Shown: positions 3,825 to 48,520 of the stretch, piece after piece
Numbering within the stretch: the stretch's first letter is position 1
Layout of the letters: every line of letters begins with the position of its first letter
The notes under the pieces: model-generated
Told to the model about the DNA's origin: nothing
The model's input: only the letters and a program-made list of their open reading frames with translations
The model's database searches: none
From: Psammoneis japonica
Taxonomy: Eukaryota
Assembly: GCA_008632985.1 (NCBI GenBank)
Contig: QPGO01000082.1
Span: forward strand, 186,001 to 250,000
Length of the DNA: 64,000 bases
Direction of reading: 5' to 3'
Translations under genes and position numbers: made by a program

Positions 3825-6800
3825 TCGGCAGCAACGGTCAGAAAAGAAGCGTGAGGGGGGCACATGAGCGAGAAAGAACAGCCGGAGATGCAAGAATTCT
3901 TTGACCAAACATCAAGGGTTGATCTGTGGATTTCTTTGCCCCTGGGTTCATCATGTCCTCACCTCTTTCCATTGTTCGAAACAGAGCTCACAAAAAAATC
4001 TCACATTGTTGCTGTGTGAGACAGAGCTCGAAACTTTTCTTGAGCTTGTTGCCAGCCGTCGCACTGGCATCATGCTTGCTGCTTTCTCTCCAGCAGCCAT
4101 GCCAGGTGCCAACAAATTGCACCAGAAACAGGAGCAGGAAAGCCACAGCCAGGTGCACAAGAACAGCTCGGGTGCTCATTTTTGGCAGGGAAACAAAAAT
4201 GGCAGTGTTGCCAGAGCTCACAGCTTGTGCCCCGCAAAACCTCATCTCGGCCAGCACAGTTTCAGAAAAAAAAGAGGCATGTGCAGCTGAGGCACAATGT
4301 GACCCACACAACAGCCAGAGAGATTGTGAGCAAACACTTGGGAACATGTGCAGTTGGTGAGTGACAAAGGTCAGTCAGTCGAGTTTTTTGCACCCTGCAC
4401 ATGTTGAGCTCTCTTCTTTCCATTCTGAGCAGTGCTTGCAATCTTGGGGCACAAGCCATGACCGGCAGGCAGCCATTTCAGTTGTGGTGACTCTGCTGTT
4501 TTTGTCATGCCACAAAAGCTTTCTCCTCTGACATTGCTTTTTTCTCTGTTGTGTGCTCCTCCTCCCCCCTCTCTCTTGCTCAATCTCTCTCTCAAATGAA
4601 TGACACACAGCTGTTGAGGGCAGCTGCTCATCACATGTTGTTGATGATGAAGAGTCCTGTGTAAACTGTTGACACAGTCATGCAGGTGCAACAACTTGGG
4701 CCCATTTCTCTGCAGGCAATGACAGGCAAGAAGGAGTGCCACTGTCAGAAAAACCAGAGCTTCTTGTTGGTTGTCTTTTGCAATGTCAGCTGCGCATCCA
4801 CACAAGAAAAAACATGCTGTTGCACCACATGAGCAAGAAAACAAATGCCAGCCAGAGAGATGCAAAAATTTTGAGCTGTTTGCCATGCACAGAGCAAAGT
4901 TTTAGCAAATGACAAAACAAGGGTTGATCTGCAGATTTCATTGCCAATGGTGGTTGCATGTGCTGCAACTTTCCCCACTCTGAATGTGTGGTGTGTGGGA
5001 GATGACCCCACACACTGCCAGCCTGCAATTTCTGTCATGACTCTGCTTGTTTTGCTGCTGTGCTGTTGGTGCTCTCCCTTCTTCATGCCTCCTCCTGTTT
5101 CCAAGAATTTTTTCCCTGTCTCTTTCACTTGAATGAACAAAAAAAGTTGGAGCAGCTGATTCTCTTGCACTCTGTCATGCACTCTGTCATGCATGACAAA
5201 CAAGAAACAGAAAGTGGCCAAGACAGGGCTGCTTGATCAGATGTTTGTCCAAACCATTCAGCAATGGCAAGGCACAACAACATTTTGGCTTTGAAATCAG
5301 AAGCAAGGCTTTTGGCTGTGGCGGTGCTTCATCAGTGGCTGGCTGCTGTTGTTGACATGGTTGAGGCTGTTGTGTTAAAAAAGATCTGGGTGAGAGGGGC
5401 AGGAGAGTTGAGTTGATCAGCTGGTGCTGGGACAGGCAAGTCAGTTTGACTGGCACTCAACTCAATCTGGTTCGCTCTCTCTTTCTCTTGAACAAACAAG
5501 TGAGGATGGGATTCAGCCAAATGGGGTTCTTGAGTTGTTCTGGTGGCATTGCCAAAGATGAGGTTTTGCCCCTTTTGAAAGAGTGGTTGCAGTTTGCTGG
5601 GCTTGCAGGATTGAGCTTGAAGTCAAAGGTGGAGCAGTCTCATTTTTGCTTTTGCGTTGGTGATTTTGAAGCAATGATTTTGAAGCAAAAGAGCATGCCC
5701 ACAATTGGGCTGGAGAGCACTCCAGTCAGGTGAGCTGAGTGGGGTGGAATGTGCATGCATGAGTTCATTTCTTTTTCACAGAGGGTGGTGTGAAGGTGGG
5801 AGCCTTGGATCAAGATTGTGAGGTCCACAAAGTTAACTTGGCAGCTTCGAGTGCTTGTGATCCAGGTGATGTCAAAGTTGTTGAGGAGCCTGGAGGCAAA
5901 TCTTTCTCAGGTGGTGATGTCTGTGATGTGCCAGATGCCAAAGATGTTGTCAACAAGTTGTTTGCAGCAAAATGGCATGGAGCAAAGCACCTCCAGGAGC
6001 ATGTCTTCATGGAGCATGCAGCACAAGGCAGCACACGGAGGGGAGGGTGGTGCACCCATGGTGGCTCCATTGCACTGGTGTCAGGTGGTGTCCCCAAACA
6101 CATGAGTGCATCATTTTCCACCACAAATTAGAGGACTTTGATGAGGGCACATCCGTTGGTGTGTGTTGCAGTCATTTTTGTGACATTGAAGACAGGAGGC
6201 AATCAATTGAGGCGCTTTTTTGGCAGGCATGTTGGAGCAGCAGGCCTCGGCATCAGACATGAAGTGGAGGCAGTTCGGTGGAAACTCCATTCAGACGAGT
6301 GCTTGTTTTGGGTCCAGGGAGCTCTTGAAGTGTGATCATTGGCAGCACGCAACCTTCTGAAGCTTGTCATCCACTCAGATGCCCAAGCCACAGAGTGAGC
6401 TGCCACTGGTGGAAACAGCTGGTCAAGATCGCAGTGGCCGGGGCTTGTGCACACAGGGAACGGGTCTTCATCAGTTTCAAAACAATGTTTGAGGTGCTTG
6501 CATTCCATTGAAGTGATGCTGTCTTTGTGTGTCTTGAGCCAGTCACTGAGGAGGTTTTTCATTTTGGCATTCTTGGATTCTGGCTTCAAATTTGCTCAGG
6601 GATTGGCGCATGTTGGTGTTGTTGAAATGGCCATGGAATGCCATTTTGACACATTTTCAATGACGGCGGGTCCCAGGTTCTTGTTGCATTGGGCTGTCAT
6701 GAAGTTCTCTTGTTTGTGGTGGAGGCAAGTGAGGGCGTGACATTGGTGGGGCAGGAGGTTGGTTCTGCCTTGGCATTTCACAAGAAGTTTGGTGACTTGT

Positions 6801-7890
6801 GTCTTTAAAAAGGCAGTGTGACAGAATTTGATGATGATGACGTTGAGTTTCCAAGGGGGGGTCCAATCGGACCAGAGGTGCATCCTGGGGTTGTGATCTT
6901 CATCATCATCATTGATTGGTGCATTGGCAAAATGTTCACATTTGTCGAGGTCTTGTTTGAATTGCCCAAGTGGTGTTTGTCATTGGATCTTGGAGGACTT
7001 GCCATTGTTGGTGAAGCATGATGTTAGAACAAATTTTTCAGACCAAGACCAAGCAATGATTGGAGGTTTTTTGGTGGTCGTTTTGTTGCAGTTCAGGCAT
7101 GTTTTGCAGGCAGTGGACACAGACATTGTGTCGGAGTTTGCAAGATGGATGGGCACTGAACCCGCACATGCAATGGACTCAGCATTCGATTGCCTCTGAG
7201 GCTTGCTCTGATTGGTGCTGGAGTGCTGTTGTTTTTTTATGGCTGTTTCAATTTGGGGTGTGATGGCAATGTTTTTGTTGGCACCACACTGGTGGTGTCA
7301 TTGTTGGCATCGTTGGCTGTTTGCAGTGTGTGGGGGGACAAAAAAGTGGGGGCTGCTGGGGGGAGCGTGAAGGACATGGCATCAGGCATGCTTGCAAATG
7401 TCAGCAAGCAGTTGAGAGTGAGGGTGTGTGCAGGCAGCAAGCAACAATTTGCCCACTGGTGCCTTGCAAAGCCGTTTGACTTTTGTGCTGAAAAAGCAAG
7501 ATCACACACATTGCTTTCAGGCAGGGATCATTTTGACACCCCTTTCACACCATGTGGCTTGTTGGTCTTCAGCCAGCCCAATGGCCTGTTGGGGGGATTT
7601 TGGCTCTTCACAATCCACCTGCTGTTTAACTCACCAGTGTTCTCTTTTGCTTCACACCTCATTTTTGGTCCTGTGGAGATCACACTCCATGTGTTTCCCT
7701 TTTGCAACAATCTGCAGTCAAGCTTGTTTGGCGGCGTGATCACAGGACACCAAAAGGAGGTGGTTGTCACAAGGGCATGCCTGGCCAGCAAAGTTTTCAA
7801 GTTGGCTCATGGGGCCCTTGGCATTGGTTGCTTCGGAGTTCACGTTCTTTGACGCCTGCACAGTCGGTTCATTGTTGCGGCACTGGAAGC
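3825..7890. mobile_element. TpA-depleted island A (degenerate transposon region)
   Basis: By eye only about 10 TA dinucleotides in about 4 kb; CG also scarce; TG/CA strongly enriched; ORFs in all frames almost lack Tyr. Confidence 0.85.
5400..6900 (-). pseudogene. Penelope-like retroelement reverse transcriptase relic
   Basis: Minus-strand fragments in the expected order: QCNKNLGPAVIE (DKNLG motif), EDPFPVC, SDAEACCSN, FGDTT*HQCNGATMGAPPSPPCAALCC, CCKQLVDNIFGIW (catalytic IDD), VNFVDLTI, TTLCEKEMNSCMHIPPHSAH (NLYLYxPxxSxHP-type motif). Broken by frameshifts and stops. Confidence 0.8.
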
Positions 7891-8691
7891 AACTGTACCG
7901 CAGTGCAAATCTTTGTGATCTCTGGCAATGAATACAACGCTCTCTCCCATCAGCGCGACAGTGTTGGCTTAGGCACACACGAAAATTGTCTAATAGAGAA
8001 GTAACTAAGAGAGAGAAATATTCAATGAAAAACTCATTTTGATGGATTGTGTAGTCTATGATGATGTGCTATTGTGCTCAAAACGCAACATCACAATGTG
8101 ATGGTGTGTGCTTCTATGATTTTGTGTATGATGTGTGGGTTTCGTGATCCAGTGCGCGGTGACCAAGACCCAAAAACTTGGAAAGAAAGCTTGGATCGAT
8201 AACCTAGAAGAGGACGTCCGCGAGTAAGTACAACTCGTGTGGTGGTCGGTGAATTCAGTAAACCACACATAGACAGACTGTTCCTTCTCGTTGCTATTCA
8301 GTGCTGGTAGGTGCAGCAATGTTGCTGTCGGTGATGTGAGAGATATGGCGTAGTGGTTGTATGATGATGGATGACGCACGTAGTTGAGTAGAGTGACGCC
8401 GATGAAGTATGGTGTGCGGTGATATTGTTGTCGTTGGTGGTGGTGATATGAATATGGAGTAGTGCTTGGATGATAATAATGGATGACGCACGTCGCTGAG
8501 TGGTGTGACGCCTGCTACAAATCCTGAAGCGCGTCAAAAGAAGTACGTTGAGATAGACCGTCCCCTGCCTTCAACGTCGAAGCTAATATCTGGCTTTGTA
8601 TGGCAATCGCTCAATGTGCGCCCCTGGCGGAGTGATAACGTGTTGACCCGATAATCCCTGTTGTTTCCCGTGAAATGAACTATCATCAGGC

Positions 8692-13764: not shown

Positions 13765-15900
13765 GCAGAGAGCACAAAAAGTGTTCACTGGCAAAAGGCA
13801 GAGAGACGACGGGATCCCTGCAAAACACCAACACCCATGGCCGGCTCCTTCTTTCAAGAGAGATGTTCTGGACTGGCAACTTTTCATCATGTTTCACTGT
13901 GCTCAAAGAACCTGCAACAAAGACAAGGCTATGTGCTGGTAAAAAGCAAGTCTCACAAAGGCACAACAACAGCCAACTTGTTCTTTGACTTCAGCCGCAC
14001 TCTTCATGTGTTGACAGGCACATCTCTCTTCATCAGAAGGTGCTCATTTCATGCTTTTCCTTTCACAAAAATGTTCTGACATGATTCCCCATGCACACTC
14101 TTGCGGTGAAGCATTTCCTCCTCAAGCTGACTCCAGGCTTCAAATGGAACGCACTCAACTTCTTCTCAAGTCCCCTCCTTCCTTGATTTCACAATCCTGC
14201 CCTTTTCCAAGCAACAAAGTCATTTGTGACATTGTTGAGAACAAACCCTTTTGCACCCAACAATTTTTCATCATGATTTGCTGCACTGCAGTTTTGTGCT
14301 GGGCTTGCAACGGCAATGTGGGAGTGCTGGTCAGCAACTTCAAATCACGTGGTGGAGCTGCCCCCTCTGCAACACCATTGTGACCTGTTTTTTCTTCTGC
14401 AACCTTTGCCTCTTCATTTTCTTTTGAGCACTCAACCCCAGCCAGTGCTTTGACCCAAAGAGCAGCACAACTGTGCCAGCTGCTGCTGCAGTCTTCATGT
14501 GAGGTTGTCTGTTCCCTGCTCCTCCAATGCCATGCCTTGTGATCTTCTGTTGTTTTGTCCTCCTCTTCTCCCTCATCTCTCTTGTCCTCCTCTTCATCTT
14601 CAGTGCTTCCACCTCATGCAGCCACAAAAGAACCACTTGGCTTGACTGTCACTTCCGTCTGTGTCAAAAGCACCACAATGTCCCCACTCATTGTGTTTTT
14701 GATGATGGTGCTTTGTGCCAAGAGTGTCGTCTGTCTGTCTCAACAACCCCGCAAATTCTGAAACTTGTCAGGTGCCTCAATGACTCACGAGTTGAGGGTT
14801 TCTGATTTCTGTGAAAAACTCTTGTTTGTGCACCCCAGTTGCAAGAGATCCAGCACATGTTCTGTGTGTTTGCTCACAATTTGTCTGCAAACTGTCAACT
14901 GTCATCTGGAGCCCTTGGGCACAGCAAATTTGCTCCCCCCCTCTGTCCTGTCTGTCTGTTTTTCTTTTCGGCTTCTGCCAAGCCATGTGACATCCACAAG
15001 TTCTGCAAATTGTCTCAACCAGCTGTGTCAGCAGAAGAGTGACTTTGTCTTGTTTGACTGGACAGCTCCAGATGAAGAATGTCATTGACGCCACTGTGCA
15101 TCACTCAAATCTCTGATCAACCCCAGCAACTTTGATGACAGATCAAAGTCTGTGATTAAAGTGCACAAGTTGGACTCTGGACATCCAGAAGATGTCCACA
15201 CTTTCTTCAAGTCATCTGACATCCAGGGCAGCTTTCTCTTGTGCAGTGTGAAGACCATGACCAAGACACCTTCAAAGCAGTGCACAAAGAGTTTCTGCCA
15301 AAAAATGTGCCCGGCCCAAGACATTGCAGTGGAGGCCAAAGACTGGTTGCAACCACTCAAAAATGCACAAGGATCAGCAAGGCTTGCAAGCCAACTCCAA
15401 CTGGAGTTCCCAAATCAGCAATGACTTGTGTCCTGTCCATGAAGCAGCCCATCCAAATGGACAAGTGCAACATCATCACCCACCATGAGCAAGAAAACTG
15501 TCAGCAGCAGCATTAAAAAAGGCTTCAATGCACTCAAACCTCATCCAACAGGAGCCAAGACAACCAAACTTGAAGCCAGTTGCAACAACATCATCCCAGC
15601 TGTTGCTGCAACCTTTGCATCAGAAGCAGCCAACAACAAGTCAATGAAAGTGGCTGCAACGTGTCTCATGGATCAAGAATTCTGGTTTCTGTGAAGAGTT
15701 CTTGTTTGTGCATTCTAATTGCAAGGCATCTAGCACATGCTCTGTGTGTTTCCTGTGAGGACTTTTGAGAAAGCGGCTCTAAAGCTCCTCTCTGTTTTAG
15801 CTCACAATTCGTCAATGAACTCACTCTGCTGACAACTGCTTTGCCAACTGTCATCTGGTGCCATTGGGCATTGTGGCTCTTTCCGGTCAACGAATTCAAA
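13765..15900. mobile_element. TpA-depleted island B; degenerate element with imperfect direct repeats (about 14800-14925 and 15680-15875) and a possible retroelement gag-like relic (about 15100-15450, +)
   Basis: No TA seen between about 13945 and 15510. Repeat copies read ttctgtgaa..cttgtttgtgca..ttgcaag..agcacatg..ctgtgtgttt..ctcacaatt..actgtcatctgg. The gag resemblance (KVHKLDSGHPEDV) is weak. Confidence 0.7.
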
Positions 15901-31140: not shown

Positions 31141-31613
31141 GTCACGATTTACTCACGTTTGACTTTGCTGTCAAAACATGACTCAAAATGTCTCACTGAA
31201 CTCCACAATTTGAACCGTCTCTGATCTGAAACTCACTTTTCCATTGATCTCGATCACTTTTGAATCTCCACAACGACGCCATTTTCAGAATCACATCATT
31301 GTCAACATTCGTTTTATTCTTCTTCGCTGTTGCTTTTAGACAACCTCCTGTCGAGGACTGCTCTTTCCAGCCCAAGCCGGAGTGCACACTCAAGCAGGCT
31401 ACCAAGACGCCACAACTGGCAAGTGATGTTGGATGGAGGAGGTGCCGTGAGAATTGAATGCATTGTGATGCGGTGTGAAGAGGCGCATGTCCGGGTTGTT
31501 AGGTTGACTTTGGGAGGAACATGATAGCGTGAGTGAAAGTGCTAAAGAGAGACGAATGAATACAATCTACTAGTTTATGATATTGGTGAGTAACTACATC
31601 AGCTCCAAGCTAT

Positions 31614-33794: not shown

Positions 33795-35174
33795 GTCAAG
33801 TGACGGTCAAGAAGAAATGAGAAGACCAAGAACAAGATCAGTAGGAGTTTTTGAGACATGTGGTGTCTACAGTCTACAGTACATGATGTTACCAAGCAAG
33901 GATAAATGTGCAGTATTAGTTTATTCGTTGTTAATATGACACGCATTGTTCTTCAGCTTCTTATCATACATCAATGTTCAGGTCTTATTGGTGCCTGTGC
34001 ATGCAGCACATGTTGTCGCTCTTTGGCACTCGGTGCCTTCAACCGTGCAATCGAGAGCAACCCTGCATTCCTAAGTTTACCGCATTTCTTGCATCTAAAA
34101 GTACGTTAGGAACCCCATGTGGAGACCAGTGGTCTAGGTCTACCGGCACTTGTATGGGGAAGTTCATCCAAGCTGTCCCTCTTTTTTCCTCGAGCTTTTC
34201 CACAGCCCGACGGAGGTTGGCCGACAAATTCTTTCGCTCATGGTCCATTGTTTGGAGCATTGTCCATTCTGATGGTGTGTGGTTCTCATCACTGCTGTTG
34301 CGGCATGAGCGCAAGGTTTGCTGTTTGTTGTTTGTTTGCCAGCAGTGCTGTGGGGCAACTTGTGAGTGATGTTTGCTTCTCCTTCAGATGGAGTTCCTTC
34401 CCAGCAAATGATGCCCCCCGTGAGGACAACAACGACGACCAGCGCATCGCACACAATGTGGCACCCATCACTCTCATCGCACAATCTTTGAACAGCATTG
34501 AGAAGATGAGAATGAGATGTCAAGGAATTGGAACATTGTGGAGCATGTGGTGCTCTTGTTGTTGTTGGTTTGACGGTTGCCAGTGCAACTCAACCTCCTC
34601 GTGCAAGGAAAAATTTTTGCACTGCCAACCTTGACAACGATGCGGCCGATGGGAGACAGTCACCAAGGAACTGCTGTCCAAGGGAGTTTGCCCTTGACAG
34701 ATTGAGAAAATTCCTGGAGTGTGCAGGACAAACTTGATGGCTGGAAGAATGTTTGCACAACAATGTGCCACAACTTGCTTGTGTGCAAGCAACACAGTGT
34801 GCGCTTTCATGGCACCTGGCCAGCAGGAAGTTTCAGATGACTGACTCTCAGTGTTTGGCATGTCATTGAGTGCTCAGGCAACAATGCCAGCACTGTGCTG
34901 AGGCAAGGACACAAGTCCTGAGGTGAGGATGACCAATTGCTGAGCCTTGTGCCAGAGCACTGAGCTGGTCGAGGATGAAACTTTGGCACAACCAAGCTTT
35001 CCACTGCAGTGCAGCATGCAGCCTTGGCCACTGCAGAACATGGTCATAGAGTGGCATGCTCTGTGTGCATGTTTGTGTTGTTTGTCAAGCAATTTGAATT
35101 TGTGCATTTCCATGTGTGTGTGAAGAATGTGGAGCTGCAATGCCAGTGGAAAAAGGTGCCACTCGATTGCAGCA

Positions 35175-36060
35175 CCAATTCCTGCCATCCACCATCCAGC
35201 AACTGCCACTCAGCATCCACCATCCACCATCCAGCATTGCCCCACCATCCAGCATCTGCTGTCTGCCAGGTTTTTTTCACCATCTGTCCAGCATGTGCCT
35301 GCTGCCATCCACCATTCAGTGCATGCCATCCACCATTCACCACCCAGCATCTGCCGCCGAGCATCTGCCACCCACTGCCCACATCCTGCCATCCACCACC
35401 ATCCACCAACCAGCACCAGCACCCAGCATCAACCACCCACCATCCAGCTTCCAGCATCCACCATCAAGCATCTCCAGCATCCAGCATCTGCCATCAAGGA
35501 TCTTCCATCCAACATCCAACATCTGCCATCCACCATCCATTGTCCACCATTTGCCAGCCACCATCCACCACCCACCATCTGCCATTTAGCACCCAGCACT
35601 CTCCCTTCAGCATCCATCATGGACCATCCAGCACCCAGCATCTGCCGTCACCCGCAACACCCAGCACCCAACATCCACCAAGGTGAGACATGAGAGAAAT
35701 GATGTGTTGCACCATTTTTGCATGACAGGTGTGCACTGAAAAATGAGAAAACTGTTTTGTGCACTTCAGTCTCAAGTGACAGTGTGACATCATCACCACA
35801 AAAAAACACCACCACATTGATGTCATCCATGCCGCAGCCACACAACAACACATGTCAAAAACAAATTGGAGATCTCTGTTGAGACCACATTGGCTGATGC
35901 CAGATGGTGGATTTTGGATGGTGGACAGTGGATGGCTGGTGGTGGGTGGTGCAGGATGGGCTGCTGGCTTGTGGGTGGTGGATGGCAGATGGTGGATGGT
36001 GGATGCTGGGTGCTGGGCAGCACATGGTGGACAGCAGATGGTGGATGCTGGTTGGGGGGA
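35175..36060. repeat. Low-complexity (CCAT/CCAC/CCAG/GCAT)n tract 35175-35680 and inverted (ATGG/GTGG/CTGG)n tract 35895-36060
   Basis: Directly visible; the two tracts are reverse-complement in composition. Confidence 0.85.
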
Positions 36061-37229
36061 GTCTTTTCACCTGTTGCTGCACCAAAATGACTGTTGAGTT
36101 GACAAAACAAAAATTGGCAACAAAGTTGCTCCCAACACAAAATGTGGAACCAGGAGTGAGCAACAAAACAATGGCAGAGCAGTTGAGCAGCAAAGGCAGG
36201 AAAAATTGTCACAGCAAAGCAGGAGCAGGCTGGAAGGTTGCTCAGGATGACAGCATGTCCAGAGCACACCAACATCAACAGCAGTTGCACATCAACAGAA
36301 TTTTTGCCAAATGTGCTGAGCAATGTCAAGTCACTCTCTTACAGCTCTTTGTTTGCAACTCCAATTAGCAGCAGATTGGGCAGCCATGCAATGATGTGAG
36401 ATCTGCCAGGTTCAGCATGTCTGGCAAATGAAAAGCTTTCACATCATTCATGTGCTTTGTGCAAACTTTCTCATTGGCCAGCATCATGTTTGCTTGTGCC
36501 GTTGTAAAGTTCAAAATGAAAATGATGTCAAAATGTTTGAGATTGTGTCAATGGAAAAACAGACAAGATTTGACAGATCATCAAGGCTGAGATTTTGGTG
36601 TGGTGCACTCATTGATGTGCTCAACACATTTGGGCAAAGCACTCAGAGTTCAGAGTCAATGCTCTCTTTTCTGGCATGTGTCATTTGCATTGTTGTAAAC
36701 TCCTCATGCACAGCATTTGCTTGTCAGAGTGCCAGCAGCTTTTTCCAACTGCCAGTCTGCTGCAGACAGAAAAAACTGCAAAAAAGACTTTTGCAGACAA
36801 AGGCAGGTGACACAGAGGCTGTTGTTGTTGTTGGAGCTTTCACATCACAGGTGTTGCAAGGCACCTGGACATGTTGAAGGGAAGAAACTCCAACTCCTGA
36901 TGCAATTTGCTGAGTGACTCTTTGTGAGAAGAGTTTCACCACAATCAACCCCTCACCTTTGACTTTCATCTCACTCTTTGGAGTTGGTTGTTTGGTTTGC
37001 AATTTGGCACACAGGTGCCTGTAATTTTGCAAGTTTGCAGCTCAAATTGATGACTTTTGGTGACCCATTGCCAAAAAAGATTGCCAAGACAAGTGCATCA
37101 AGTGGCACAGGAAGCCCAGTGGGGTTTCCTTTAGGGAAGATTGACTTGCCAGCTCAACATTCACTCCAAAGAGTTGCTGGCACTGTGCTCAGTGCTTGCA
37201 AACATCGGCCCATGTGCAGACAACCAAGC

Positions 37230-37755
37230 ACTGAATGCCTGCACATTGCACAGCAGAGGAGGAGGTGGAACAAGCAGCAGAGGCTGAAGCTGAAGCTTTG
37301 GCAGCAGGAAAGGTGACAAGAGTCACAGGTCCTGCACTGAGAAATGACTTTCAGCCTGAAATGAAATTTCATCCTTTGTCACTGAACAGCAATGCTCACA
37401 ATGATGCTGTGCACAAAGACATCAAGAAGAAGATCATCTGTTGCATGCAAAAGGGGTGTGAACAAGGCATGCACATCATGGGGTCTTTAGAAGACATGAA
37501 ATGGTGCAAGGATCATGGCTCTGAAAAAAAAACACCTTGAGAGTGTCAATGGGGGCAGCACCTGAGGTGACAGAAGTGGGATGCCAGGATGTGCTGCAGA
37601 AGAAATGGCTCAAAGACAAGGAGCTGGAACATGAGCACAAAGCAGAGCCAAGTGACTGCTGCAACAAAGCAAAGCAGTTTGAAGAGGACAACAAGACAAC
37701 TGCATTTGCCAAGATGGCAGACAACTGCTGCACCAAGCAAATCAAGTGCAGGGCA
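37230..37755 (+). pseudogene. Copia gag-like relic
   Basis: KIICCMQKGCEQGMHIMGSLED and ELEHEHKAEPSDCCNKAKQFEEDNKTTAFAKMADNCCTK resemble the N-terminal region of diatom Copia polyproteins with Tyr replaced by Cys/His. Confidence 0.5.
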
Positions 37756-37909
37756 GTTCCACCCTTTGCACTTGACTCAATGAGGGGTCAACGTCTGTTC
37801 TGCCACAGTTGTCCCACTGGCATCAGGGACAATCTGACCAAGTTGCTGAAACCAATCCAATCTCTTGCACTCATCTCAATGAGAGGTCAACATCTGTTCC
37901 ATGCACTTG

Positions 37910-40900
37910 CCAGCACAAACACCTGAGAATGATTGGGATTGTTTCTGTGCGCATCAATGCACGAAAACAAAAAGCAAGCACATTCTCTGGCGTGAGCACC
38001 ACTCTGGACAAGAGTTTGCACACACGGCAAGTGTGTCTCTCGCTGGTGGGTGTGAAAAGAAGACATCAATGTCAGTGACATCTGTGGCATCAATTGCAAA
38101 TGCTTCTGCCGCTTGTCACTTGCGCAAGTCTCGCGCAGTTTTTCCAGCACAGTGCCACACGCAAAAGAGCAGAAACAAACAACAGGCGCAGCCAGGCGAA
38201 CCAAGCAATGACATGCATGACGATGCTTCAAAAGTTGCAAAAGCAAGTGATGGCTGGCATTCATCAACTGCATTGCTTGCTGTGATTCTCCCACTCTCTG
38301 CTGCAGTGCTGGTGTCAGCAGCTGGGCTTCAGGCCCCAATGACAGAGAATCCAAAGCACAGTGAGACAAGCAGCGATGATCGAGAAATCAAAACAATGCC
38401 GAGAGAGAAAGCATCTTTCTTGCAGATGGCAATCAACTTGCCAAAAATGCAGAGATGTCCACAATTTGCAGCAGAGAGGGAGATCACTTGGTGTGAGTGC
38501 CGTGCACTCTGGTTGACAAATGTGACTGTGCTTTGAATGATGGCTTTTGTCTTGGGCCGGCATGCCGTGAGGTGCGTCTTCAGTTTCTGCAACTTGCTGA
38601 CACTCGTCACCACAAAGTGTTCACCCATGACGACAACCCTGATTGATGAGGTGCAAGTCGTTCAGCGGTCTTTCTCTGCAGATCCAAATGCACAGAAAGA
38701 ATAAAAAAATCAGACACCACTCTGTTCAGTGCCGTTCATCGACATCATTGCGCAATGTGGCTTTTCTTGTCGCTGGCAATGACGTGGTGACCATTTCGCA
38801 GTGAATGAGGCACAACGCATGACATCTCCCCTCCACGTGTTGTCTTCATCCAATCTGACATCATTGTCGGTGAAAACACAATTGACAGAGTGTGAGACAA
38901 ATGGCAACTGAAATGACAAAACAATGCCAAGAGTGAAATGGTGCATTGCTTGCCAATGATGCAAACACAGCATTCCACAATGCACTGGTGGCTGACAGAT
39001 AGAGAGATCATGCTGTTCAATGCCACACGTTCTCACCAGCCACCACAGACCAGCAACTCTGGCAGAAGAGGATGTCTCTCTGCATCAAGCCACCAAAAGG
39101 AATTGTTGCCATGCCCACAGTCCATTGTGTTGCCACATTGCCTGCACACAACACTGATCTTCAAAACCAAAGAGTCCAAATGCCAACACACAGTGAACAG
39201 CATGCTGAGACTCAACCACAGTTGTTTTGCCTTGTCTGTCAACAAGGTGTGACACATGACATCTCCCATTGGCTTGATCTGAAGAAAAGAATAAGAGCAC
39301 AAGAGAACAATGTGAGCAAAGAATGGAACACTGGAGTGACAACAAAAGCTCAAAAGGGCACACATTCAATGCCCACCAGATGCAATGTGATCATTTAGAC
39401 GACAATCCACAAAACAGAAAATGGATGCCATGAGAACTGGGTTGTCACTTCTTGTGTCATTTCAGAGTCTTGCAAATGTGGCAGCTTGACCACTGCAGCA
39501 CTGCTTCAGCAAATCAGATTGATGGAGGAACACAGCAAATTGTCACAGCCAGCACAAGTGCACCAGATTGGCAACCCCAAGGCTGAAGGAGGACAGGCAA
39601 CACACATCTGATTGATGCTTCTGCTGTTCGCAGAAATTTTTACAAAACAATCCAAATCCTGCCTTCCTCCCTTGTGCTTCCTTGGCTTGCTTGCTTCCCC
39701 ACAAGCAAAAAACTGGTCTGTCCTCTGCCTTTTGGCATCTCTGTAAAAGTCAATTTTGTTTCCAAAATCAATGGGTTTTTCAACAGGCAATGCTTCTGGC
39801 ATCTTCTGACATTGTCAACTGACGTGCTTTTGTGCCAGTGTTTGTCAGTTTCATGGTTCTGAACGCCATTGCCACTGTTCAGATGCTTCTGCTGTTGGCA
39901 GAAATTTTTGTGAAACAAACAAAATCCTGCCTTCCTCCCTTGTGCTTCCTTGGCTTGCTCGCTTCCCCACAAGCAAAAAACCAGTCTGTCCTCTGCCTTT
40001 TGGCATCTCTGCAAAAGTTGATTTTGTTTCCAAAATCAATGGGTTTTTCACCATGCAATGCTCTTGCATCTTCTGACATTGTCGGTGACATGCTCTTGTG
40101 CCCATGTTCACCAGTTTCACACCAGCTCTGAATGCCATTGCCACTGTTGCAAGAAGGGCCTTTTTTTGCTCCAAGAGGACAGACCGGTCATCATCAGAAT
40201 TCTGTGTGGCAATGCACTGAGAAATTTACAAAGTTTTTTTTTTGCCTCCGACCTCAATTGCTTGGCCATTGTCTCTCACTGCGGCAGCATGGCAAGTTCA
40301 CAATGCACACTCTTGTCAAACAATGTGGGCCCACAAGCTCTCATTCATTGTTGTTTTGCCTTGTTGCTCACATTTTGTGTGCATGCATTTGTCTCGAATT
40401 GGAAATGGACAACTTAAAAAACGTTCATCAATGAGGATGATCAATGACACAAAATCTCTGTAAATTCTCAAATGACTGTTTTTTCTTAGAAAATGGTGAT
40501 GTGCTGCTTTTGCCCCCCCCCAATTGTGCCATGATGCAACACTCTTTTATCCGCTGTTTTCACAAAGTGCTCTGTTGACCTTCTGACTGATGCCAGCAGA
40601 GGCAGTTTGCACGTCAAACAATGGGGGCCACTCTTAAAGTGATTTGCAAAGTTTGCTCTTGCAAGAGGACAGACCAGTTGGAAGAGAACAGACTGGTTTT
40701 TTGCTTGCACCACAGCACCAAGTTTTCTGTGTTCTTCTGCCACCCTGGACCACAGCCACGTGCACATGAAATAAAAAGCACCAACGCCAAATCAAGATGG
40801 AGAGCAATGATGCGTGACAGATGCGCACAAGGAAAAAAAGATCATTTGCACGCACATGCCTGCAGCACATTCTCAAACATGGGTGGCGCAACTTTTAAGG

Positions 40901-43900
40901 CATCGTGCAAAGACTTGCGTGCTGCACAGAGGATTTGCGCAGGGCAGTGCAAATTAGATGCCAGAGGCTGTGCAGAAAAAATGCAAAATCACTGCACTCA
41001 TGCTCAACCAAAACCGGTGGCAAAATTTCCGTCAGTGGTGTGGTGAATCCTGCGGAAATTCTTGAACAGATTTTGCCGGGACTCAACATGAAGCACAACT
41101 CAGAGGAGCTGGATGATGATGACACATCTTTGCAAGACCAACAAACCACACATGCATGAAAAGATCATTGAGAGCAGATGTGTCAAACTGCATCTCACAC
41201 CCACGTGTCCAGGGACATCACTCTTTAAAATCTGACGCCTTCCAATTTGTGGTTTGGGGGAAATCTGATGACATCTTCAGACAGGTTGGTGCAAGATGCA
41301 GTTTGACCCTCCAAACCTTCTTCCCCCACATGTGCTTGAGACACTTTGACACCCATTTCTTTGTGACACTTGACATGTTGACAAGACAGTCGCCACTGAA
41401 AATGTTTGCTCCACTCAGTCCACTCAATGCAGAATTGATGCTGCAGTCTGCAGCCCATGAGCAACAGCACTCAAGTCTTTGTGTGATGCCTCAATGCAAC
41501 CCCAAAGCACCGCATGTCAGTTTTGGCAAAAGAGTCCAAGAACACTGCTCCAAATGGTGATTCAATCAGGTGTTGCATGTGGCAGCACAAGACAAGCCAA
41601 GTGGCAGCCTTCTGTTGGTCCGTGTGCGCCATCGAGTGCTTCTCTTCAGCAGTCACGGCATTCTAGATTGCTGGATGAGGGAGCGCATCACATTGTAGAT
41701 GCTTGTGCAAAACAATGCAAAGGGCAGCCAAGATCTTGCTGGACAAACCGGTCTTCCAACTTGAGATTGCAAAAAGGAACAGAAGCAATGGATTCTCCAT
41801 TGCACAACCAACGATCTTAGAAAGATGATTGGTGATCAAGTTGCAGCTTGATTCTGCCAAATCACAACAGAGTTGCGCAATGGATTCTTTGCACATCATG
41901 CACTCAAACGGCGCTGGTGGATTCTTGCGCTGTTGCAGGCCAAATTCCAACATCAACAACCAAATCATTTTTTTTGGGTCCCAGGTTTTCCCATGGCAGT
42001 CTTGCAACAACTTGACAAAAAAAATGTTGAAAGTCACTCAATCCCTCAGCTTTGTCAAAAGCATCAATGAAATTCCGGCAAACCACTTGCATCTCTGCAT
42101 CAAAATTGGCGCTGGTGCAATCAAGATTGACCATGACACAAAATTGGTCATCTTGCCTGACATCTTTTGAAAGGTTGCGGTGGTTGTGCATGTTGCCACT
42201 TGCCCCAATCATTTTCAGTGCATCGTTTTGAATGCCACAAACACCAGGGCTGTTGGTGACAGCTCGGGTGGCATTTGGTCTGAACAGCGCCTGTCTGGAT
42301 GCTCAACAACATGGTGTTTTTGAGCAAGCACTGCCATGGCTTCACAGTGCAGCTTGGCAGTTTCTTGGGCCACGTTGGAGCCAAACATTGGCATGATCAA
42401 TTGCTTGTAGAACTTCTTTTCATTGTGTGGCATCTCATTGCCAGGGTGCAGCTGTCAGGCTCATTGTTCATGCCAATTTCATGGATCTTTTGCCAGTCGT
42501 CAATCCCACCTGCTCAGTCACAGACAGTCTGTCCTTGCACTGCCAGTTTTTTGTCGGCATCACAACATTTCATCTTGTCAAACACAACATGATGTTACAT
42601 TGTTGTTTGCATTGAGACACAGCCAAATGCACCGCAAAGCCCAAATGAAGTGAGCAAAAATCAGCAACACCCGTGCACCAGTCAGACAGTGTCCAAATCT
42701 CTAAAACTCTGCCACAGAAGCAGGGCATGTGGAGGCACCACATGTCTTGAGGCAGTGCTTCTTGAGGCAGGTGCTTTTGAAGTTTTGGCGACTCACTTGC
42801 GCTCTTCATGACAAAGCATTGACCTGTGACAACAACCCCAGACTGACGAGGTGCAAGTTGTTCGGCGGCCTTTCTCTGCAGATCAGAAATGCAACAAGCA
42901 ACAAAAAATCAGACACCACCTTGATGGGAAAGATTGTCACAATCTTCGACACGTGGCACTTCAGCCAAAGCAACATTCTTGGAGGATTGAATTGGAATGT
43001 CATCAACACGTGCAGCACTTTGGTCAGAGTGGCGTTCTTGGAGGATGGACTTGGACCAGAAGCACTGACAGTCTGTCATGCCGGCATTTGGCAGAGTTGT
43101 TGTGATGTGATGTGCACTTTGCAAGTTGCTGGTGACAACATTTTGGAGCTGCTGTTCATGCAGCGCCACATTGATTTGCACCCTGTTTGGCATTTTGCAG
43201 CAGAAGGGCCAGCATGCATCACAAATGAAGTGCTCAAAAAAGGGCATGGCAATGATGCTGCATGTCTTTCTGTTTGTCATGGGCACCTCACACTGTTTGC
43301 TTTTGTTTGTGTTTTGTGCACATGCCATTGCTTGCATGTTGATGTGCCAGAGAGCTGGCAGAGTGGGGCCCTGCAGCCGGGGCCTCTGCGTGCAGTGCAC
43401 AGGCTCAGAGCCTGTGCTGCGCACGAGTGATGTGGTGCCGTCAAAATTTGAAAATTTGACTTTGAAAGCACAAACACCTGAGAATGATTGGGATTGTTTC
43501 TGTGCGCATCAACGCGCGAAAACAAAAAGCAAGCACATTCTCTGGCATGAGCACCACTCTGGACGAGAGTTTGCACACGGCAAGTGTGTCTCTCGCTGGT
43601 GGGTGGTGGGTGTGAAATGAAGACATCAATGTGTCAGTGACGTGCGTGGCATTAATTGCAAATGCTTCTGCCGCTCGTCACTTGCACAAGTCTCATGCAG
43701 TTTTTTCAGCACAGTGCCACACGCAAAAGAGCAGAAACAAACAGCAGGCGAATCAAAGCAATGACATGCATGACGATGCTTCAAAAGTTGCAAAAGCACA
43801 CCCGCCTAAAAGTGATGTTTGCATTTGCGAGGATCAATCAAATGTCTGCAGTATGGTCCACTTCTCTACAGCAGAGTCTGCAACACCCCACTGTGCTGCA

Positions 43901-46530
43901 GCACCTTTTTCAATTCACGAGGATCAACCAAACACAAGCTCAACAACCAAATGGAGCTTCTTTCCCAGCACGGCAACTTTCACTCCAATCAAAGAAGTCA
44001 CACTCAGCTTTGGCAATCACTGAACACAAATTGACACAACACACATCCGTTCGCAACTCCACCCTGCATTCCACCCACAGTGACTCTGACCTTGCGTCTC
44101 TTGTCCCTCTTGCATTTCACCTTCTTGATGTCCAAATGAGGACGCCGCTCGCAAGTGACAGAATTGGCATTTCCCTTGAACGTTCGGCAAGACTGGCTGC
44201 CGCACCAGCCATGGCACGGGGACTGAAAAAGGTGCCAATGGTCTTTTGTCCTTTGTCAAGAGGCTTGTGTTGCTTGGGAGGCATGGTGATGTGACACATT
44301 TGGCTGCAGTGCAAATCACGTGCGAATCCTTTGGCATCACAACAGCAAACGACGAATGTTCAGAAGTGCATCAGAAACAAAAGAGTTCAGCACGAACAAC
44401 AATGTGATTGAATGCTCACTGTGTCGAATGACAGCAATTGGCGCACAGCCACCAATGCCGAGCCGAGTGCAGTGCATGCGTGTTGTTGCAATTCGTTCAT
44501 TCTTCAGGGCTGAACGATGTCGAACCAACAATCAACAAGGAACAAAACAGTCAATGAGCAACACATTTTATAAACAGGAAATTGAAGAGTGGCATTGTGT
44601 CGATTCAATGCTCACCTGGTGATAACGCTGCGGGTGTGACACTGTCACGAGGAGTCTCTTGACGTCCGATGCACCTTTGTGTGCCGATGGAGTTGACTCC
44701 ATCAACATCGTTGAAACGATCAGCACGATGGCAAACCAAACACGAGAAGTGAGAATGCATTCAAAGTACAAACGACACAAGAAATTGACATGAACGGAGA
44801 TGAAGGCTCACCTTTCAAAGTGCACTCACAAAACAAAGCAGCTCGATGCGACAGTCGCCTTCTTTTCGTTGATTCTGAGATTGATGACCGCGGAATTCCG
44901 GCGCGCCAATTTCGTGGATCTTTTGCCACTCGTCAATCCCACTTGCTCAGTCACGGACAGTCTGTCCTCGCACTGCCGGTTTTTCGTCGGCATCACAACA
45001 TCATTTCATCTCGTCAAACACAACAAGATGTTACATTGTTGTTTGTGTTAAGACAGCCGAACGCAACGCAAAGCCCAAACAAATAAAATGAATGAAAAAT
45101 CAGCAACGCCCGTGTGTAAGTCGGACAGTGTCAAAATCTCTAAAACTCCGCCACAGAAGCAGGGCATGTAGAGGCACAGCATGTCTTGAGGCAGCACGTC
45201 TTGCGGCAGGTGCTTTTGCAGTTTCTGTCACTCGCTGACACTCGTCATGACAAAGTGTTGACCTGTGACGACAACCCTAGATTGATGAGGTGCGAGTCGT
45301 TCGGTGGCCTTTCTCTGCAGATCAGAAATGCAACAATCACAAAAGATCAGACACCGCCTTGATGGGAAAGATTGTCACAATCTTCAACACGCGGCGCTTC
45401 AGTCGGAGCAGCATTCTTGGAGGATGGACTTGGAATGTCATCAACACGCGCATCACTTCAGTCGGAGTGGTGATGTCAGAGGACAGACTTGTGCCAGCAT
45501 CATTGATTGTCTGAAAAAAGAAAAAGGAGTGCTTGTTAGATTCACAAAATTTGTTCGTCGTCCTCGTGATTCATCAGATGTTGCATGCTCACCACATTCA
45601 AAAAACAACAATGACACGTCAATCAAAGCAAGTGGCATGTCTCAAATCACATCAACACGCAGGCAATGACACATGTGCAAAACACAAACAAAGCAAATGG
45701 CACAAGATGCCCATGACAAACAGAAAGACACACAGCATCGTTGCCTTGCCATTTTTCGAGCGTTGCATTTGCAATGCACACCGGCGCTTCTGCTGCAAAA
45801 TGCAAATCAATGCTGCACATGCAGCAGCTCCAAAACGTTGTTACTTGCAACTTGTAAAGCGTGCATCGCATCATGACGACTCTGCCAAATGTGCCGAATG
45901 AAGAATGAAGAAGAGTCCAGGAGCAAGGCAAGAACCCAACGACGAATCGTGTCGAGACTCATCCACACACAGTGTGCATGATGTTTGTGGACCGGTGCAT
46001 GTTTTGATGTGCATTGATTTGTTGAGAGTTGAGGGCGAACTTGAGGTTTTTGGCCAAATTGACCAAGGGAAAGCAAGGAAGGCAGCAGTTTCTTGGATGG
46101 CACTCGCCAGCTCGCTCGCTTGTGCGCGGCTTGCTCGCTCGAACAGATTTCGAATCATCATCAAGCCCCGCCAATGCACGCACGACGCACGTGCACACCA
46201 TCAGAATTTGTCTTGAAAAGCACAAACACCTGTGAATGAGCAGTGTCATGTCCACGCGCATCAACGTGCGAAAACAAACGCGCGCGCTCCATCCATGCGA
46301 GCCTTCACTCGGCGCACCAAGGCTGAGTGCAAACAATGGTGACAATGAGACAACCATGTCAGTGACATGCATGACTTTAAATGCAAATGCCACTACACCG
46401 TGTCACTTGCAGGAGTCTTGTGCATTTGTTTTAGCACAGTGCAGCGCAAAAGAGCAGTGACAAAGCGATGTCGAATCGACACATCGTGATGCTTCAAATC
46501 CTGCAAAAGCACAACCGCCTAAAAGTGAAT
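37910..46530. repeat. Dispersed segmental duplication, three partial copies (about 37910-38250 plus 38560-38720; 42470-43815; 44905-46530)
   Basis: Shared blocks such as tttctctgcagatc, gcacaaacacctg, gatgcttcaaa..tgcaaaagca, ccacagaagcagggcatgt. Confidence 0.85.
39613..40090. repeat. Tandem duplication, period 268 bp
   Basis: gatgcttctgctgtt...catcttctgacattgtc at about 39613-39820 and 39881-40088. Confidence 0.9.
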
Positions 46531-46602
46531 TCCGGCACAGGGACTCGAACCCTGGTATCCTGCGTGAGAGGCAAGTATGCTAACCACCTACATCATGCCG
46601 GA
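46530..46602 (-). tRNA. tRNA-Glu (CTC)
   Basis: Minus strand TCCGGCA-TG-ATGT-AGGTGGTTA-GCAT-A-CTTGC-CT[CTC]AC-GCAGG-ATAC-CAGGG-TTCGAGT-CCCTG-TGCCGGA-A folds as a complete cloverleaf; TTTT Pol III terminator just downstream (46524-46521). Confidence 0.95.
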
Positions 46603-48520
46603 CAGATGCTATGAAATGCGTTTCGTTGCTTTTTGAACATTTGCGCAATTGTTCGTCAATGCAAAATGGGTGTGCATGCAGGTCATTTGTGCAGCTTTCA
46701 CAGTCTGGAAAAGGGCAGCAAAGCACAGAACTGAAATGAACAACAATGTTAAAAGTGAGTGTCAAGAGAAAAGAACTCGAATGACCTCGCTCACTTGTTG
46801 GTGCTGCTCCACCACACCAGCGGCTCTCGAGCGGCGTGCTCGATTCTCAGGCGAAGCACAGAGCGACAATCCATTTTGAGCACAAATTGTGTGTTTCTCA
46901 TGTGTGGAGCATTTTCACAAAAAGGTGCTTGTGCAAATGGGCTTTTGTGGGTGTGCGTGCAGAATGTGGCTTTTTCTTTCGCGGAGCTCAAGCCATCGTA
47001 GAACACACGCCACAAATTTCCTTTGACACGCTGGCTGTGCGACAATGCACCCCCTCACAGGCAGAACACCCCACTGGAAACATTGTGGGCAGCTCTTTTG
47101 CATTGATGTCCAAACACTTAATTTGCACGAATCTTCAACACTTTTGCTGAAAATCACCTGCTGTCAACAACTTTGCAGCGCTGATGCAAGTCTTGTCAGT
47201 GTTTCAAAACATTGGCATTTTAACAAATCTCTGCTGTTGGTTGGTGGTCGATCGCAAGTTGGTGGGGGCCACATGAAAAACATGCAAATGTCATTTTTGT
47301 GCACAATTTGGTTCATGCACAACTGCTGAAACACATGGAGTTTCCCCCATTTGTCAGAGTGCAGAGTGTGAAAGATGTGGGACAACAAATTTTCTCCCTG
47401 CCAAGAGCAGATTGTGGGTTGTTGCTCACAAGAAGGTTCAACCTGCCAAGCTAGAACCTGGCTGTTCAAAACAACAAAAGCAAGTGATCTCTGCAAGCAC
47501 AAAGGAGGGTGCTAAAGCCAGCTGTGCAGCCTTGTTTTTGGAGCCAAACGCCAGGTGCTTTCCATGCTTTGCATTTTGAGGCAGCCACACAAGTGCACAA
47601 TTGAACTCCATGCATGCTGTGTGTGAAGTGTGCCGCATTGTTTGCACTTGCAAAAGGTTTTGAAATTGCCGACCAAAGCCATCCTCTGGAGCACAAATCC
47701 TTTCATGATGTTTTGTCTGTGGTGATGGCAAAGCAAACCATGAAAAAATTGCAACAAGAAGGTCAAGGTGCAAAAGCAATGCAGTGCTGAGTCAGCCTCC
47801 TGGTCTGCCATGAGTGCCGAGTCACTTGCCAAAATGGGGAAGAAAGCATTTTTTGGCGGCCTGGATTGTTGTGGCGCATGGCCACCCATTTGTTGGAGCT
47901 TGGTGATGCTGCCTTTTGCCTTCTGTGACTTCAAGGAAATGGGCACACATCAAGCAGCATTAACATCTTTCAGTTTCATCCTCTCTTCTTGGGCTTTGAC
48001 ACAAAAGAACAACCTGATTTGATTGTCAAAGCCAAACAACGCACAGCACGGGTTCTGTCAAACCTTTTGTTGGCACGGTGGTCAGAAAAGGCTTCAGTCA
48101 CCAGGCAAGGCACAGGCAAGTGTCAAAATTATATAACGGTTCGTTGGAATCATCTCATCTGAGGGCCGTCGGATCCATGCGCAATTCCAACTGTAGCACA
48201 ACAGACGCTGCAGAAGACATCTATATCATCAACAACCTCCCAAACGTAGTGTTCTTAAAACTGCAAAGCAGAGCACACACGGCATCTGGAAGGAACTTAT
48301 AAGACCAAGCAGTGAGTTTTATGCTTAACTAGAACTACAGTAGCTAGCGGTGTAGGCTTGCACTGGAGCGATGAACTTAGAAGAAAGCCCTGAATCGCCA
48401 CAAACTTCTTTGAAGAACGAGCTTACTTCTTGTAGTTCTGTTGGCAACAAAAGGACGAACAAAATTAGGAAAAACATAGAATGGGGATGACGATTGCAAA
48501 CGAATTATGGAGGCGCCAAC

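Follow-up and report, generated by a model that had tools for sequence, protein, structure and literature searches.

Loss of TpA from four islands of a Psammoneis japonica contig suggests site-specific hypermutation overlaid by CpG decay

What kind of process could strip a single dinucleotide from whole blocks of a nuclear genome and leave the genes between those blocks as they were? This question is raised by a 64,000-nucleotide stretch of Psammoneis japonica DNA (GenBank assembly GCA_008632985.1, contig QPGO01000082.1, positions 186,001 to 250,000 of the forward strand), which we call the window and number from its first letter. Four islands in it, named A to D, are almost free of the dinucleotide TpA. 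An initial annotation had tentatively attributed them to an undescribed, repeat-targeted genome-defence system that turns TpA into TpG or CpA, the reverse of fungal repeat-induced point mutation (RIP). With high confidence, the signature and its restriction to the islands are established.

The window was scanned in 500-bp steps, and observed/expected (O/E) dinucleotide ratios were counted for the four spans as the initial annotation had delimited them. Island A contains 9 TAs in 4066 bp (O/E 0.03), close to the earlier estimate of about 10 in 4 kb, island B 8 in 2136 bp (O/E 0.05), island C 13 in 5661 bp (O/E 0.03) and island D 65 in 13971 bp (O/E 0.07). The rest of the window, 38166 bp, has 1528 TAs (O/E 0.59), and the flanking genes have a TA O/E of about 0.6, in agreement with the earlier description of the flanks as TA-normal. 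Measured against the TA rate outside, the binomial probabilities are 2e-58 for A, 1e-27 for B, 4e-80 for C and 8e-160 for D, and the claim of four almost TA-free islands stands on these counts. The TA-depleted blocks total about 26 kb. Sharp boundaries had been claimed as well, and maximum-likelihood change points (Table 1) fall within 0-185 bp of the edges proposed earlier. These edges are sharp to about 100 bp; at island D, regular TAs continue until 34153 and the next one is found at 35047.

What was lost as TA reappears as CA and TG, with O/E values of 1.66-2.11 and 1.53-1.84, respectively, in the islands versus 1.13 outside. The sum of all pyrimidine-purine (Y-R) dinucleotides is 24.71% in the islands and 23.70% outside, as expected if transitions had converted TA and CG to TG and CA and little else had happened. 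G+C content is equal in and out of the islands (0.47-0.51). Stop codons in the islands are nearly all TGA (51 of 57 in frame 1 of 25700-31600). Since TAA and TAG have been erased, many long open frames appear (238 of at least 70 aa), in which Tyr is absent and Cys, His, Trp and Gln abound. Such spurious frames may be called genes by gene finders, and Tyr-free, Cys/His-rich "proteins" of this type already sit in public collections.

The islands are also depleted in CG. While the TpA process of the initial annotation is supported, this parallel depletion had been overlooked: CG O/E is 0.21 in A, 0.17 in B, 0.15 in C and 0.40 in D, compared with 0.98 outside. CG loss is less complete than TA loss, and its edges are more gradual: CG sites are still present over the first 200-400 bp of the TA-free zone and become sparse further in (for example at 3826-4169, 25864-26191 and 34191-34478). 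Within island C the CG O/E falls to 0.02-0.03 at 28-30 kb. At 44-47 kb, in island D, 1-kb windows have a TA O/E of 0.06-0.17 while their CG O/E is 0.82-0.88. Because TA is lost where CG is intact, both at 44-47 kb and in a 181-bp repeat considered below, and because TA edges are sharp and CG edges gradual, a separation of TA loss from CpG decay is supported, with the two processes superimposed in the islands. CpG methylation of long terminal repeat (LTR) retrotransposons has been reported in a diatom.

The 181-bp tandem repeat lies outside the islands, and its copies differ in a way that isolates the TA-directed change. Units 1 and 2 (50353-50714) have 15 mismatches, 13 of them in Y-R sites. 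Two sites read TA in one unit and TG in the other, two read TA and CA, four are discordant between TG and CA, and one is TA in both (within CTAG). Ten of the eleven CG sites are intact in both units and the eleventh reads CG/CA; just two other positions differ. The four TG/CA discordances imply two hits on one ancestral dinucleotide, and with only 1 of 22 CG site-copies changed this ancestor was not CG. Changes thus affect about 12 of 18 TA site-copies, 1 of 22 CG site-copies and 2 of about 166 other positions (Fisher test, P=3e-5 for TA versus CG and P=7e-13 for TA versus other positions). The repeat shows that TA sites as such were changed, on both strands and in place, once the duplication had happened and with no CpG decay. 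It had been noted earlier that duplicated copies differ at TA/TG/CA sites; this is clearest here, and inside island D the differences are mostly CG-type.

In the whole element that encloses the array (Table 1), TA O/E is 0.29 and CG O/E 1.0. Its arms are about 105 bp long and 96-97% identical as inverted copies, which gives an element of about 790 bp in all, similar to a foldback element or one bounded by terminal inverted repeats. The only TAs of the arms are in CTAA context and intact, and the arms differ from each other at two CG/TG sites.

Whether repetition itself is the trigger, as the words repeat-targeted had implied, is not shown. A TA-rich repeat of two 62-bp units is untouched even though it lies only about 60-160 bp from the hypermutated 181-bp array; the segment 50060-50250 has 28 TAs in 191 bp (O/E 1.12). 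Repetition alone, at least at this length, therefore does not attract the process. At this one locus a repeat of 181 bp in 2.3 units is affected and one of 62 bp in two units is not.

The repeats of island D speak to the order of events, its TA loss mostly predating the local copies. The copies at 42469-43075 and 44902-45513 are 84.5% identical in four letters and 94.5% identical in purine/pyrimidine letters, and copies in general rise from 76-89% to 91-97% identity when compared in this way, so transitions dominate throughout. Differences within copy pairs are mostly CG-type and asymmetric: in the pair just named, CG is kept by the second copy alone at 23 sites and by the first alone at 5. 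About five TA sites per 610 bp remained when the copies separated. Discordant TG/CA sites number 13, compared with 15 expected in a model of CG decay alone. Since nearly all TA was gone before divergence and CG decay alone explains the discordant sites, we rejected these pairs as proof that TA mutated later than the duplication. In island D, TA was purged first and CpG decay continued afterwards.

An identifiable ancestor is found in island C, which houses a degenerate Ty1/copia-type relic (Table 1). A phmmer search with the read-through frame of this island returned 1121 relatives at E<=1e-3 (best 5.8e-34), and an RVT_2 domain, typical of the Ty1/copia type, was present in eight of nine tested homologues. 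Within the window, 150 homologues used in tblastn and a profile made from 43 full-length copia relatives both gave a signal at the relic only, which aligned at positions 1087-1486 of the 1553 in the family hidden Markov model (HMM). Upstream of the reverse transcriptase (RT), no HMM or tblastn signal was obtained for Gag, protease or integrase. These parts and the LTRs are either degraded past recognition or truncated.

The relic carries the marks of both losses. Tyr makes up 0.1% of its frame, compared with a median of 3.0% in the 150 homologues. Conserved columns were defined as the 137 in which at least half of 120 aligned homologues agree; seven of these are Tyr, and the relic has kept none of them. 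Two now read TGC (Cys) and CAT (His), so that the earlier statement that conserved Tyr codons had become Cys or His holds for just two of seven in the window, and the pattern is strong in three database relatives. Among the Arg columns, three are kept, all as AGR, and six of the eight others are Cys, His, Gln or Trp, as predicted by change of CGN to TGN or CAN.

Relatives of this element indicate what its composition may have been. All 79 related copia loci from metagenomes, chosen for their intact motifs and stemming from other organisms, have a TA O/E of 0.39-1.04 (median 0.64), and only one of their 2951 windows of 500 bp contains two or fewer TAs. Judged by these loci, the copia family does not appear to be TA-poor by nature.

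Three of the 150 homologues, P0158, P0150 and P0125, are open copia-type frames of 541, 458 and 693 aa from public assemblies. The residues at the seven conserved Tyr columns are HCFHCCH in P0158 and FHHCHHC in P0150, and the conserved Arg columns of both are all Arg or Lys; P0125, too, has kept Arg. Each of the three was also compared at the Tyr positions of its ten best normal relatives. P0158 has His or Cys at 115 of 185 such positions (58 His, 57 Cys) and Tyr at 10; P0150 has them at 93 of 136 (59 His, 34 Cys) with Tyr at 21, and P0125 at 91 of 187 (60 Cys, 31 His) with Tyr at 44. These proteins seem to show the TA footprint without CpG decay and could serve as a lead to further genomes with the TpA process. 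The RT motif usually begins with Tyr where WHVDDNKI, the search pattern derived from P0150, has another residue. A search of viral contigs for the DNA of P0158 and P0150 gave no usable match.

Loss of Tyr in the relic, the normal TA content of its family, the replacement of Tyr by His or Cys in database relatives and the divergence of the 181-bp units all argue that the loss of TA is mutational. The proposal of an A:T to G:C process at TpA, acting on both strands and confined to repeat or transposon DNA, is upheld by the 181-bp repeat, by composition and by the database relatives.

Which TAs escape is informative about the agent. Among the 95 TAs remaining in the islands, 75 are in TTA or TAA, and TTAA accounts for 22, versus 4.5-6.8 expected under uniform survival or regeneration from TG/CA. 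When non-island DNA is taken as a proxy for ancestral composition, TA survival (observed over expected) is 4 of about 311 in RTAY (1.3%), 39 of about 531 in mixed contexts (7.3%) and 52 of about 192 in YTAR (27%). An additive per-strand model built from the pure classes predicts 5.9% for the mixed class, compared with the 7.3% observed. The baseline shares of RTAY, mixed and YTAR are 30/51/19% in the flanks and 30/52/18% in the 79 foreign copia loci. The products are skewed as well: the ratio of RCAR plus YTGY to RTGR plus YCAY is 1844:1248 in the islands versus 1534:1323 outside (P=4e-6), with an asymmetry of 1.3-1.8 in each of the four islands and of 1.5 (187:125) in the CG-normal sub-block at 44-47 kb. 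Together, the survival gradient and the product asymmetry point to A to G at 5'-TAY-3' on either strand as the preferred event, which is equivalent to T to C at 5'-RTA-3' on the opposite strand. TG and CA are about equally frequent in each island and follow one another at random along its length (runs test z -0.2 to -1.6, flanks alike).

In tRNA, the A34 residue is preceded by U33, and base editors prefer "YAC". A published review table lists the motif 5'-ACG for TadA/ADAT2 and 5'-UAG for ADAR1/2, and ADARs are described as favouring a 5' U. By analogy, the flanking rule would fit a TadA/ADAT2-like enzyme better than an ADAR-like one, the resemblance being one of preference only. TA is palindromic, and chemistry at adenine and chemistry at thymine would give the same flanking rule. 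A deaminase with a 5'-T preference, put forward in the initial annotation, is a reasonable candidate, and the 3'-pyrimidine preference added here fits TadA/ADAT2 over ADAR.

The bases themselves were compared with a public sequencing run (X1), used as Logan contigs from a different assembler with a word depth of about 60; this run may represent the window's own sample. It contains 84% of the sampled words of 25000-32500, and its contigs reproduce islands C and D in pieces of at most 2.7 kb, for example 2596 bp with 11 differences. This match excludes an assembler artefact; a base-calling artefact is not excluded by X1 alone. A total of 775 contigs align to 25001-45000, a segment that takes in island C and the greater part of island D, and 415 of them do so at only 90-95% likeness, so the sequences of islands C and D are multi-copy in that data set.

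Of the differences from X1 that single contigs show, the 40 best supported include 37 in the islands. CG is set against TG or CA in 16 of these and TA against TG or CA in six (three in each direction), with one TG/CA double that counts as two; other transitions (8) and transversions (5) make up the rest. In total, 24 are letters of transitions from one Y-R dinucleotide to another. With about 60 TAs in the 25001-45000 stretch, six TA-type differences correspond to per-site variation far above that of ordinary positions. The TA change would then be either recent or ongoing, the differences themselves having no polarity.

A precedent for this signature exists. In mutation-accumulation lines of the alga Bigelowiella natans, 231 of 302 nuclear point mutations were located in two integrated viral regions, and in these regions all but one of the mutations were A to G or T to C, all of those at TpA (Mettrop et al., bioRxiv 2026, 10.64898/2026.01.13.699255). 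According to the same preprint, the rate is about 6e-7 per site per generation, in some lines only; the mutations were called de novo from Illumina data; TpA-depleted coding sequences of B. natans are enriched in RT and DDE domains; and the authors propose an adenine deaminase, an ADAT2 homologue, as the agent (10.64898/2026.01.13.699255). To call the process undescribed was therefore too strong, as TpA to TpG/CpA hypermutation has been measured in integrated viral DNA of B. natans (10.64898/2026.01.13.699255). For diatoms, our literature search found no report of the TpA-loss signature, in line with the earlier remark that no described diatom mechanism could be matched. The available text of the preprint mentions neither diatoms nor CpG nor flanking bases; its supplements may contain flanking-base data (10.64898/2026.01.13.699255).

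The two cases share A to G and T to C changes confined to TpA on both strands, and a long-term loss of TpA with a gain of CpA and TpG. In both, selfish or foreign DNA is hit and neighbouring host genes are normal, with retroelement identity confirmed here for island C alone. They differ in host, B. natans being a rhizarian alga and the present genome that of a diatom-type stramenopile, and in targets, which in B. natans are a single-copy giant-virus insert and a virophage and here a copia relic, repeats and a tandem repeat. The depth of the footprint differs as well: the reported Rho for TpA in the B. natans virus region is 0.45, with a cluster cut-off of 0.43, whereas the islands are saturated at 0.03-0.07. 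Rates have been measured in B. natans and only inferred here. The window thus presents the same signature as B. natans in a distant lineage, saturated, in a retrotransposon relic and repeats, and overlaid by CpG decay.

We consider it highly probable that two site-specific transition processes mutated the island DNA itself. The islands would be repeat- and transposon-derived DNA in a diatom-type nuclear genome. The first process would be a TpA-specific A:T to G:C hypermutation in which each strand of the palindromic TA is attacked independently, so that a site becomes TG or CA at random; it would be nearly complete, prefer 5'-TAY-3' and halt sharply at the edge of the element. The second would be ordinary decay of methylated CpG to TpG or CpA, slower and patchier. 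Together they would leave G+C unchanged, remove Tyr codons and TAA and TAG stops, and destroy coding capacity. The TpA process is likely an active, enzyme-driven genome defence, a function that we infer. Its agent might be a TadA/ADAT2-type adenine deaminase acting on nuclear DNA and recruited by a repeat-silencing mark, a tentative assignment by analogy to which we give somewhat less than an even chance.

Several observations weigh against this reading or limit it. X1 consists of contigs and possibly comes from the same sample, which leaves a base-calling artefact not fully excluded, and the differences between the window and X1 cannot be polarised. An ancestral family is identified for island C alone, at about 35% identity. 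Codon-level polarisation of the relic against its family was tried and given up as too diverged, with 34 of the 76 differing conserved columns needing at least two changes. The single-transition changes of the relic comprise four of TA type, eight of CG type and seven other transitions. Both the TA-normal copia members and the relatives with Tyr replaced by Cys or His come from sources other than the genome of the window, and the survival fractions lean on the compositional proxy named above. The untouched 62-bp repeat next to the 181-bp array bears on the trigger. The copies in island D had lost nearly all TA before they diverged, and action in situ on them is not shown.

Among the rival explanations, an artefact of sequencing or assembly would mean that modified bases in repeats were mis-called and that the real DNA retains TA and CG. 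The possible identity of the X1 sample with that of the assembly, and its availability as contigs only, leave some room for this. We regard it as barely credible, as a second assembler reproduces the islands at a depth of about 60 with about 0.2% differences, a mis-call at a palindrome could not yield a stable, site-specific choice of TG or CA, Tyr to Cys/His replacement is also found in proteins from other public assemblies, and the same mutations were reported as called de novo from Illumina data in B. natans. Inherited composition, in which the elements were TA-poor before entering this genome and nothing acts on TA here, would account for the roughly five TA sites per 610 bp present when island D sequences were duplicated, and islands A, B and D are without an identified ancestor. 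It is nevertheless very unlikely: the 181-bp units diverged at TA sites after duplication in place, TA sites are polymorphic between the window and X1, all 79 related copia loci are TA-normal and the relic has lost seven of seven conserved Tyr, and four unrelated blocks have arrived at the same extreme TA value. Editing of retroelement transcripts by an ADAR-like enzyme, with A to G changes fixed by reverse transcription, could draw on the reported 5' U preference of ADARs and on the retroelement in island C. It predicts TA to TG on the sense strand only, yet TG and CA are about equal, including in island C; this strand symmetry largely refutes it. A tandem repeat that is not a retroelement was moreover affected in place, and contexts of the TAG type survive best, opposite to the listed ADAR motif 5'-UAG, which leaves RNA editing with next to no probability.

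The signature coincides with CG-depleted, presumably methylated and silenced DNA, and this would suit an explanation without any dedicated enzyme, already offered as an option in the initial annotation. A regional bias, arising from mismatch repair or from error-prone repair or replication of heterochromatin, would then happen to peak at TpA. We hold this to be improbable given the near-complete specificity for a single dinucleotide, a flanking rule that fits an additive per-strand model, the excess of changed TA site-copies over other positions in the 181-bp repeat (about 12 of 18 versus 2 of about 166), and the loss of TA with sharp edges where CG is intact or has gradual ones. Chemistry at thymine would replace the adenine deaminase by modification of the TpA thymine, for example to 5-hydroxymethyluracil by an enzyme of the TET/JBP type, followed by T to C change through mispairing with G or mis-repair, with a preference for 5'-RTA-3'. 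As TA is palindromic, the survival, product and 181-bp results fit either strand reading, and the 5-hydroxymethyluracil of dinoflagellates is enriched at TpA. No result of this analysis supports a modified thymine. The 3'-pyrimidine reading matches the listed TadA/ADAT2 motif, and the authors of the B. natans preprint interpret their precedent as adenine deamination; we consider thymine chemistry unlikely.

Comparison with other known systems helps to place the TpA-specific hypermutation. Fungal RIP, as described in the literature, is a C:G to T:A change, mostly at CpA, that creates TpA. In both cases only repeats or selfish DNA undergo transition hypermutation, the affected blocks end sharply, their coding capacity is lost and a dinucleotide footprint stays behind. 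RIP itself was rejected as the cause, as its direction is opposite: TpA is erased, CpA and TpG are up and G+C is unchanged, which agrees with the earlier characterization as a reverse of RIP. Decay of methylated CpG accounts for the CG depletion, for part of the TG/CA gain and for the Arg codons of the relic that went from CGN to TGN or CAN. As the sole process it was rejected too: it cannot remove TpA, and TA was lost where CG is intact, more completely and with sharper edges.

TadA, ADAT2-ADAT3 and the editors derived from TadA convert adenine to inosine, which is read as G, with T before and a pyrimidine after the edited A. Their natural substrate is a tRNA loop, and no natural algal member is established to act on the double-stranded DNA of chromosomal repeats. 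The ADAR and APOBEC systems of animals offer another likeness, as deaminases that restrict mobile elements and leave clustered transitions in them, with ADAR favouring a 5' U. They are described as strand-asymmetric through RNA or cDNA intermediates, with a 3' G for ADAR and C to T changes for APOBEC. The changes in the window, in contrast, are strand-symmetric, unclustered by strand and followed by a 3' pyrimidine, and a tandem repeat was hit in place.

The features of the window are collected in Table 1. The identity of islands A, B and D was searched by several routes. Stop-to-stop pieces of at least 70 aa from the islands (238 in all) gave only five chance-level matches in Pfam, none of them among the 38 pieces of A or the 17 of B, and the six read-through frames gave none for island A and one chance-level match (PsbT) for island C; these Pfam blanks are weak, as Pfam also missed the real relic in island C and read-through frames were scanned for A and C only. 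By Pfam, tblastn or the copia family HMM, no recognisable element was found in islands A, B or D. The initial annotation had placed dead retroelements in three islands and a gag-like relic in island B, which holds for island C only. Self-comparison, both in four letters and in purine/pyrimidine letters, revealed no LTR pair for islands A or C. The short-repeat block of island D has a TA O/E of 0.02 and a CG O/E of 0.09, and its summed word depth of 1688, versus about 60 elsewhere, is the highest in X1; it may be a satellite-like family.

Table 1. Islands, repeats and the retroelement relic of the window. Limits of islands A to D are maximum-likelihood TA change points.
Feature	Position	Strand	Description
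Island A	3735..7895	.	TA-free, CG-poor; between DnaJ-type gene and bZIP gene
Island B	13765..15715	.	TA-free, CG-poor
Island B internal repeat	14784-14871 / 15665-15751		Short, single; from self-comparison
Island C	25830..31315	.	TA-free, strongly CG-depleted; houses copia relic; partly depleted tail to ~31490
Degenerate Ty1/copia-type relic	26933..28359	-	C-terminal part of RT plus RNase H
Island D	34155..48130	.	14-kb TA-free block with several repeat families; CG depletion uneven
Island D short-repeat block	35150..36070	.	Tandem and inverted; many direct and inverted self-matches
Island D repeat pair span	42469..45513	.	Copies 42469-43075 and 44902-45513, differing mainly by transitions
Island D sub-block	44000..47000	.	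TA-depleted, CG near normal
62-bp x2 tandem repeat	50073..50195	.	TA-rich, 98% matches by Tandem Repeats Finder (TRF); unaffected control
Element with inverted arms	50251..51036	.	Arms 50251-50354 and 50930-51036 enclose the 181-bp array
181-bp tandem repeat	50353..50817	.	2.3 units (TRF period 181); outside islands; early-stage target

The host genes around the islands are intact, mostly intron-free and eukaryotic, and include DnaJ, bZIP, RelA/SpoT, Kelch, proteasome ATPase, PfkB fusion and TDP1 genes. The proteasome ATPase is 88-91% identical to those of the centric diatoms Proboscia, Leptocylindrus, Aulacoseira and Corethron and 85-89% identical to those of bolidophytes. The RelA/SpoT homologue (20415-22961, + strand) is an intron-free gene for 848 aa with HD, synthetase, TGS and ACT domains. 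It is 65% identical to that of Ditylum; proteins from algal transcriptomes are 63-65% identical and many bacterial proteins 52-57%. By sequence this homologue resembles a stringent-response gene of the algal type with bacterial ancestry. The identities of the proteasome ATPase and the RelA/SpoT homologue place the window in a diatom or something very closely related, and not in Bigelowiella, in support of the earlier assumption of a diatom. At 54910-57186 (+ strand), a single open frame of 758 aa combines a sugar kinase of the PfkB family with a TIM-barrel domain like that of xylose isomerase. An open frame of 564 aa at 59352-61046 (+ strand) had no relative at E<=1e-10 among 8000 candidates scored, and a match to Cnd3 was sub-threshold only; its protein may be lineage-specific.

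TpA hypermutation has so far rested on one preprint and one rhizarian alga, and a saturated footprint in a diatom-type genome would mean more than a one-species curiosity. A more far-reaching reading is that a genome defence devoted to DNA editing may exist in diatoms and, with Bigelowiella included, perhaps in much of the stramenopile-alveolate-rhizarian group. An enzyme, most simply an adenine deaminase derived from TadA/ADAT2, would convert A to inosine at 5'-TAY-3' on either strand of chromosomal repeats, faster than CpG decay and independently of it, and would remove Tyr codons and TAA and TAG stops until all TAs are gone; we place this just below an even chance. If true, fungal RIP would have a mirror image in nature, and double-stranded DNA a naturally occurring adenine editor. 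The deaminase idea is made testable by the preference for a 3' pyrimidine, the independence from CpG decay, the action in place on a tandem repeat and the random choice of strand, and the engineering that is possible in some diatoms would make such tests feasible. Base-editing research, too, would be interested in an enzyme from nature that acts on A within double-stranded chromosomal DNA. For the algae themselves, TpA hypermutation could be a defence of old or repeated origin, in organisms responsible for a large share of ocean photosynthesis.

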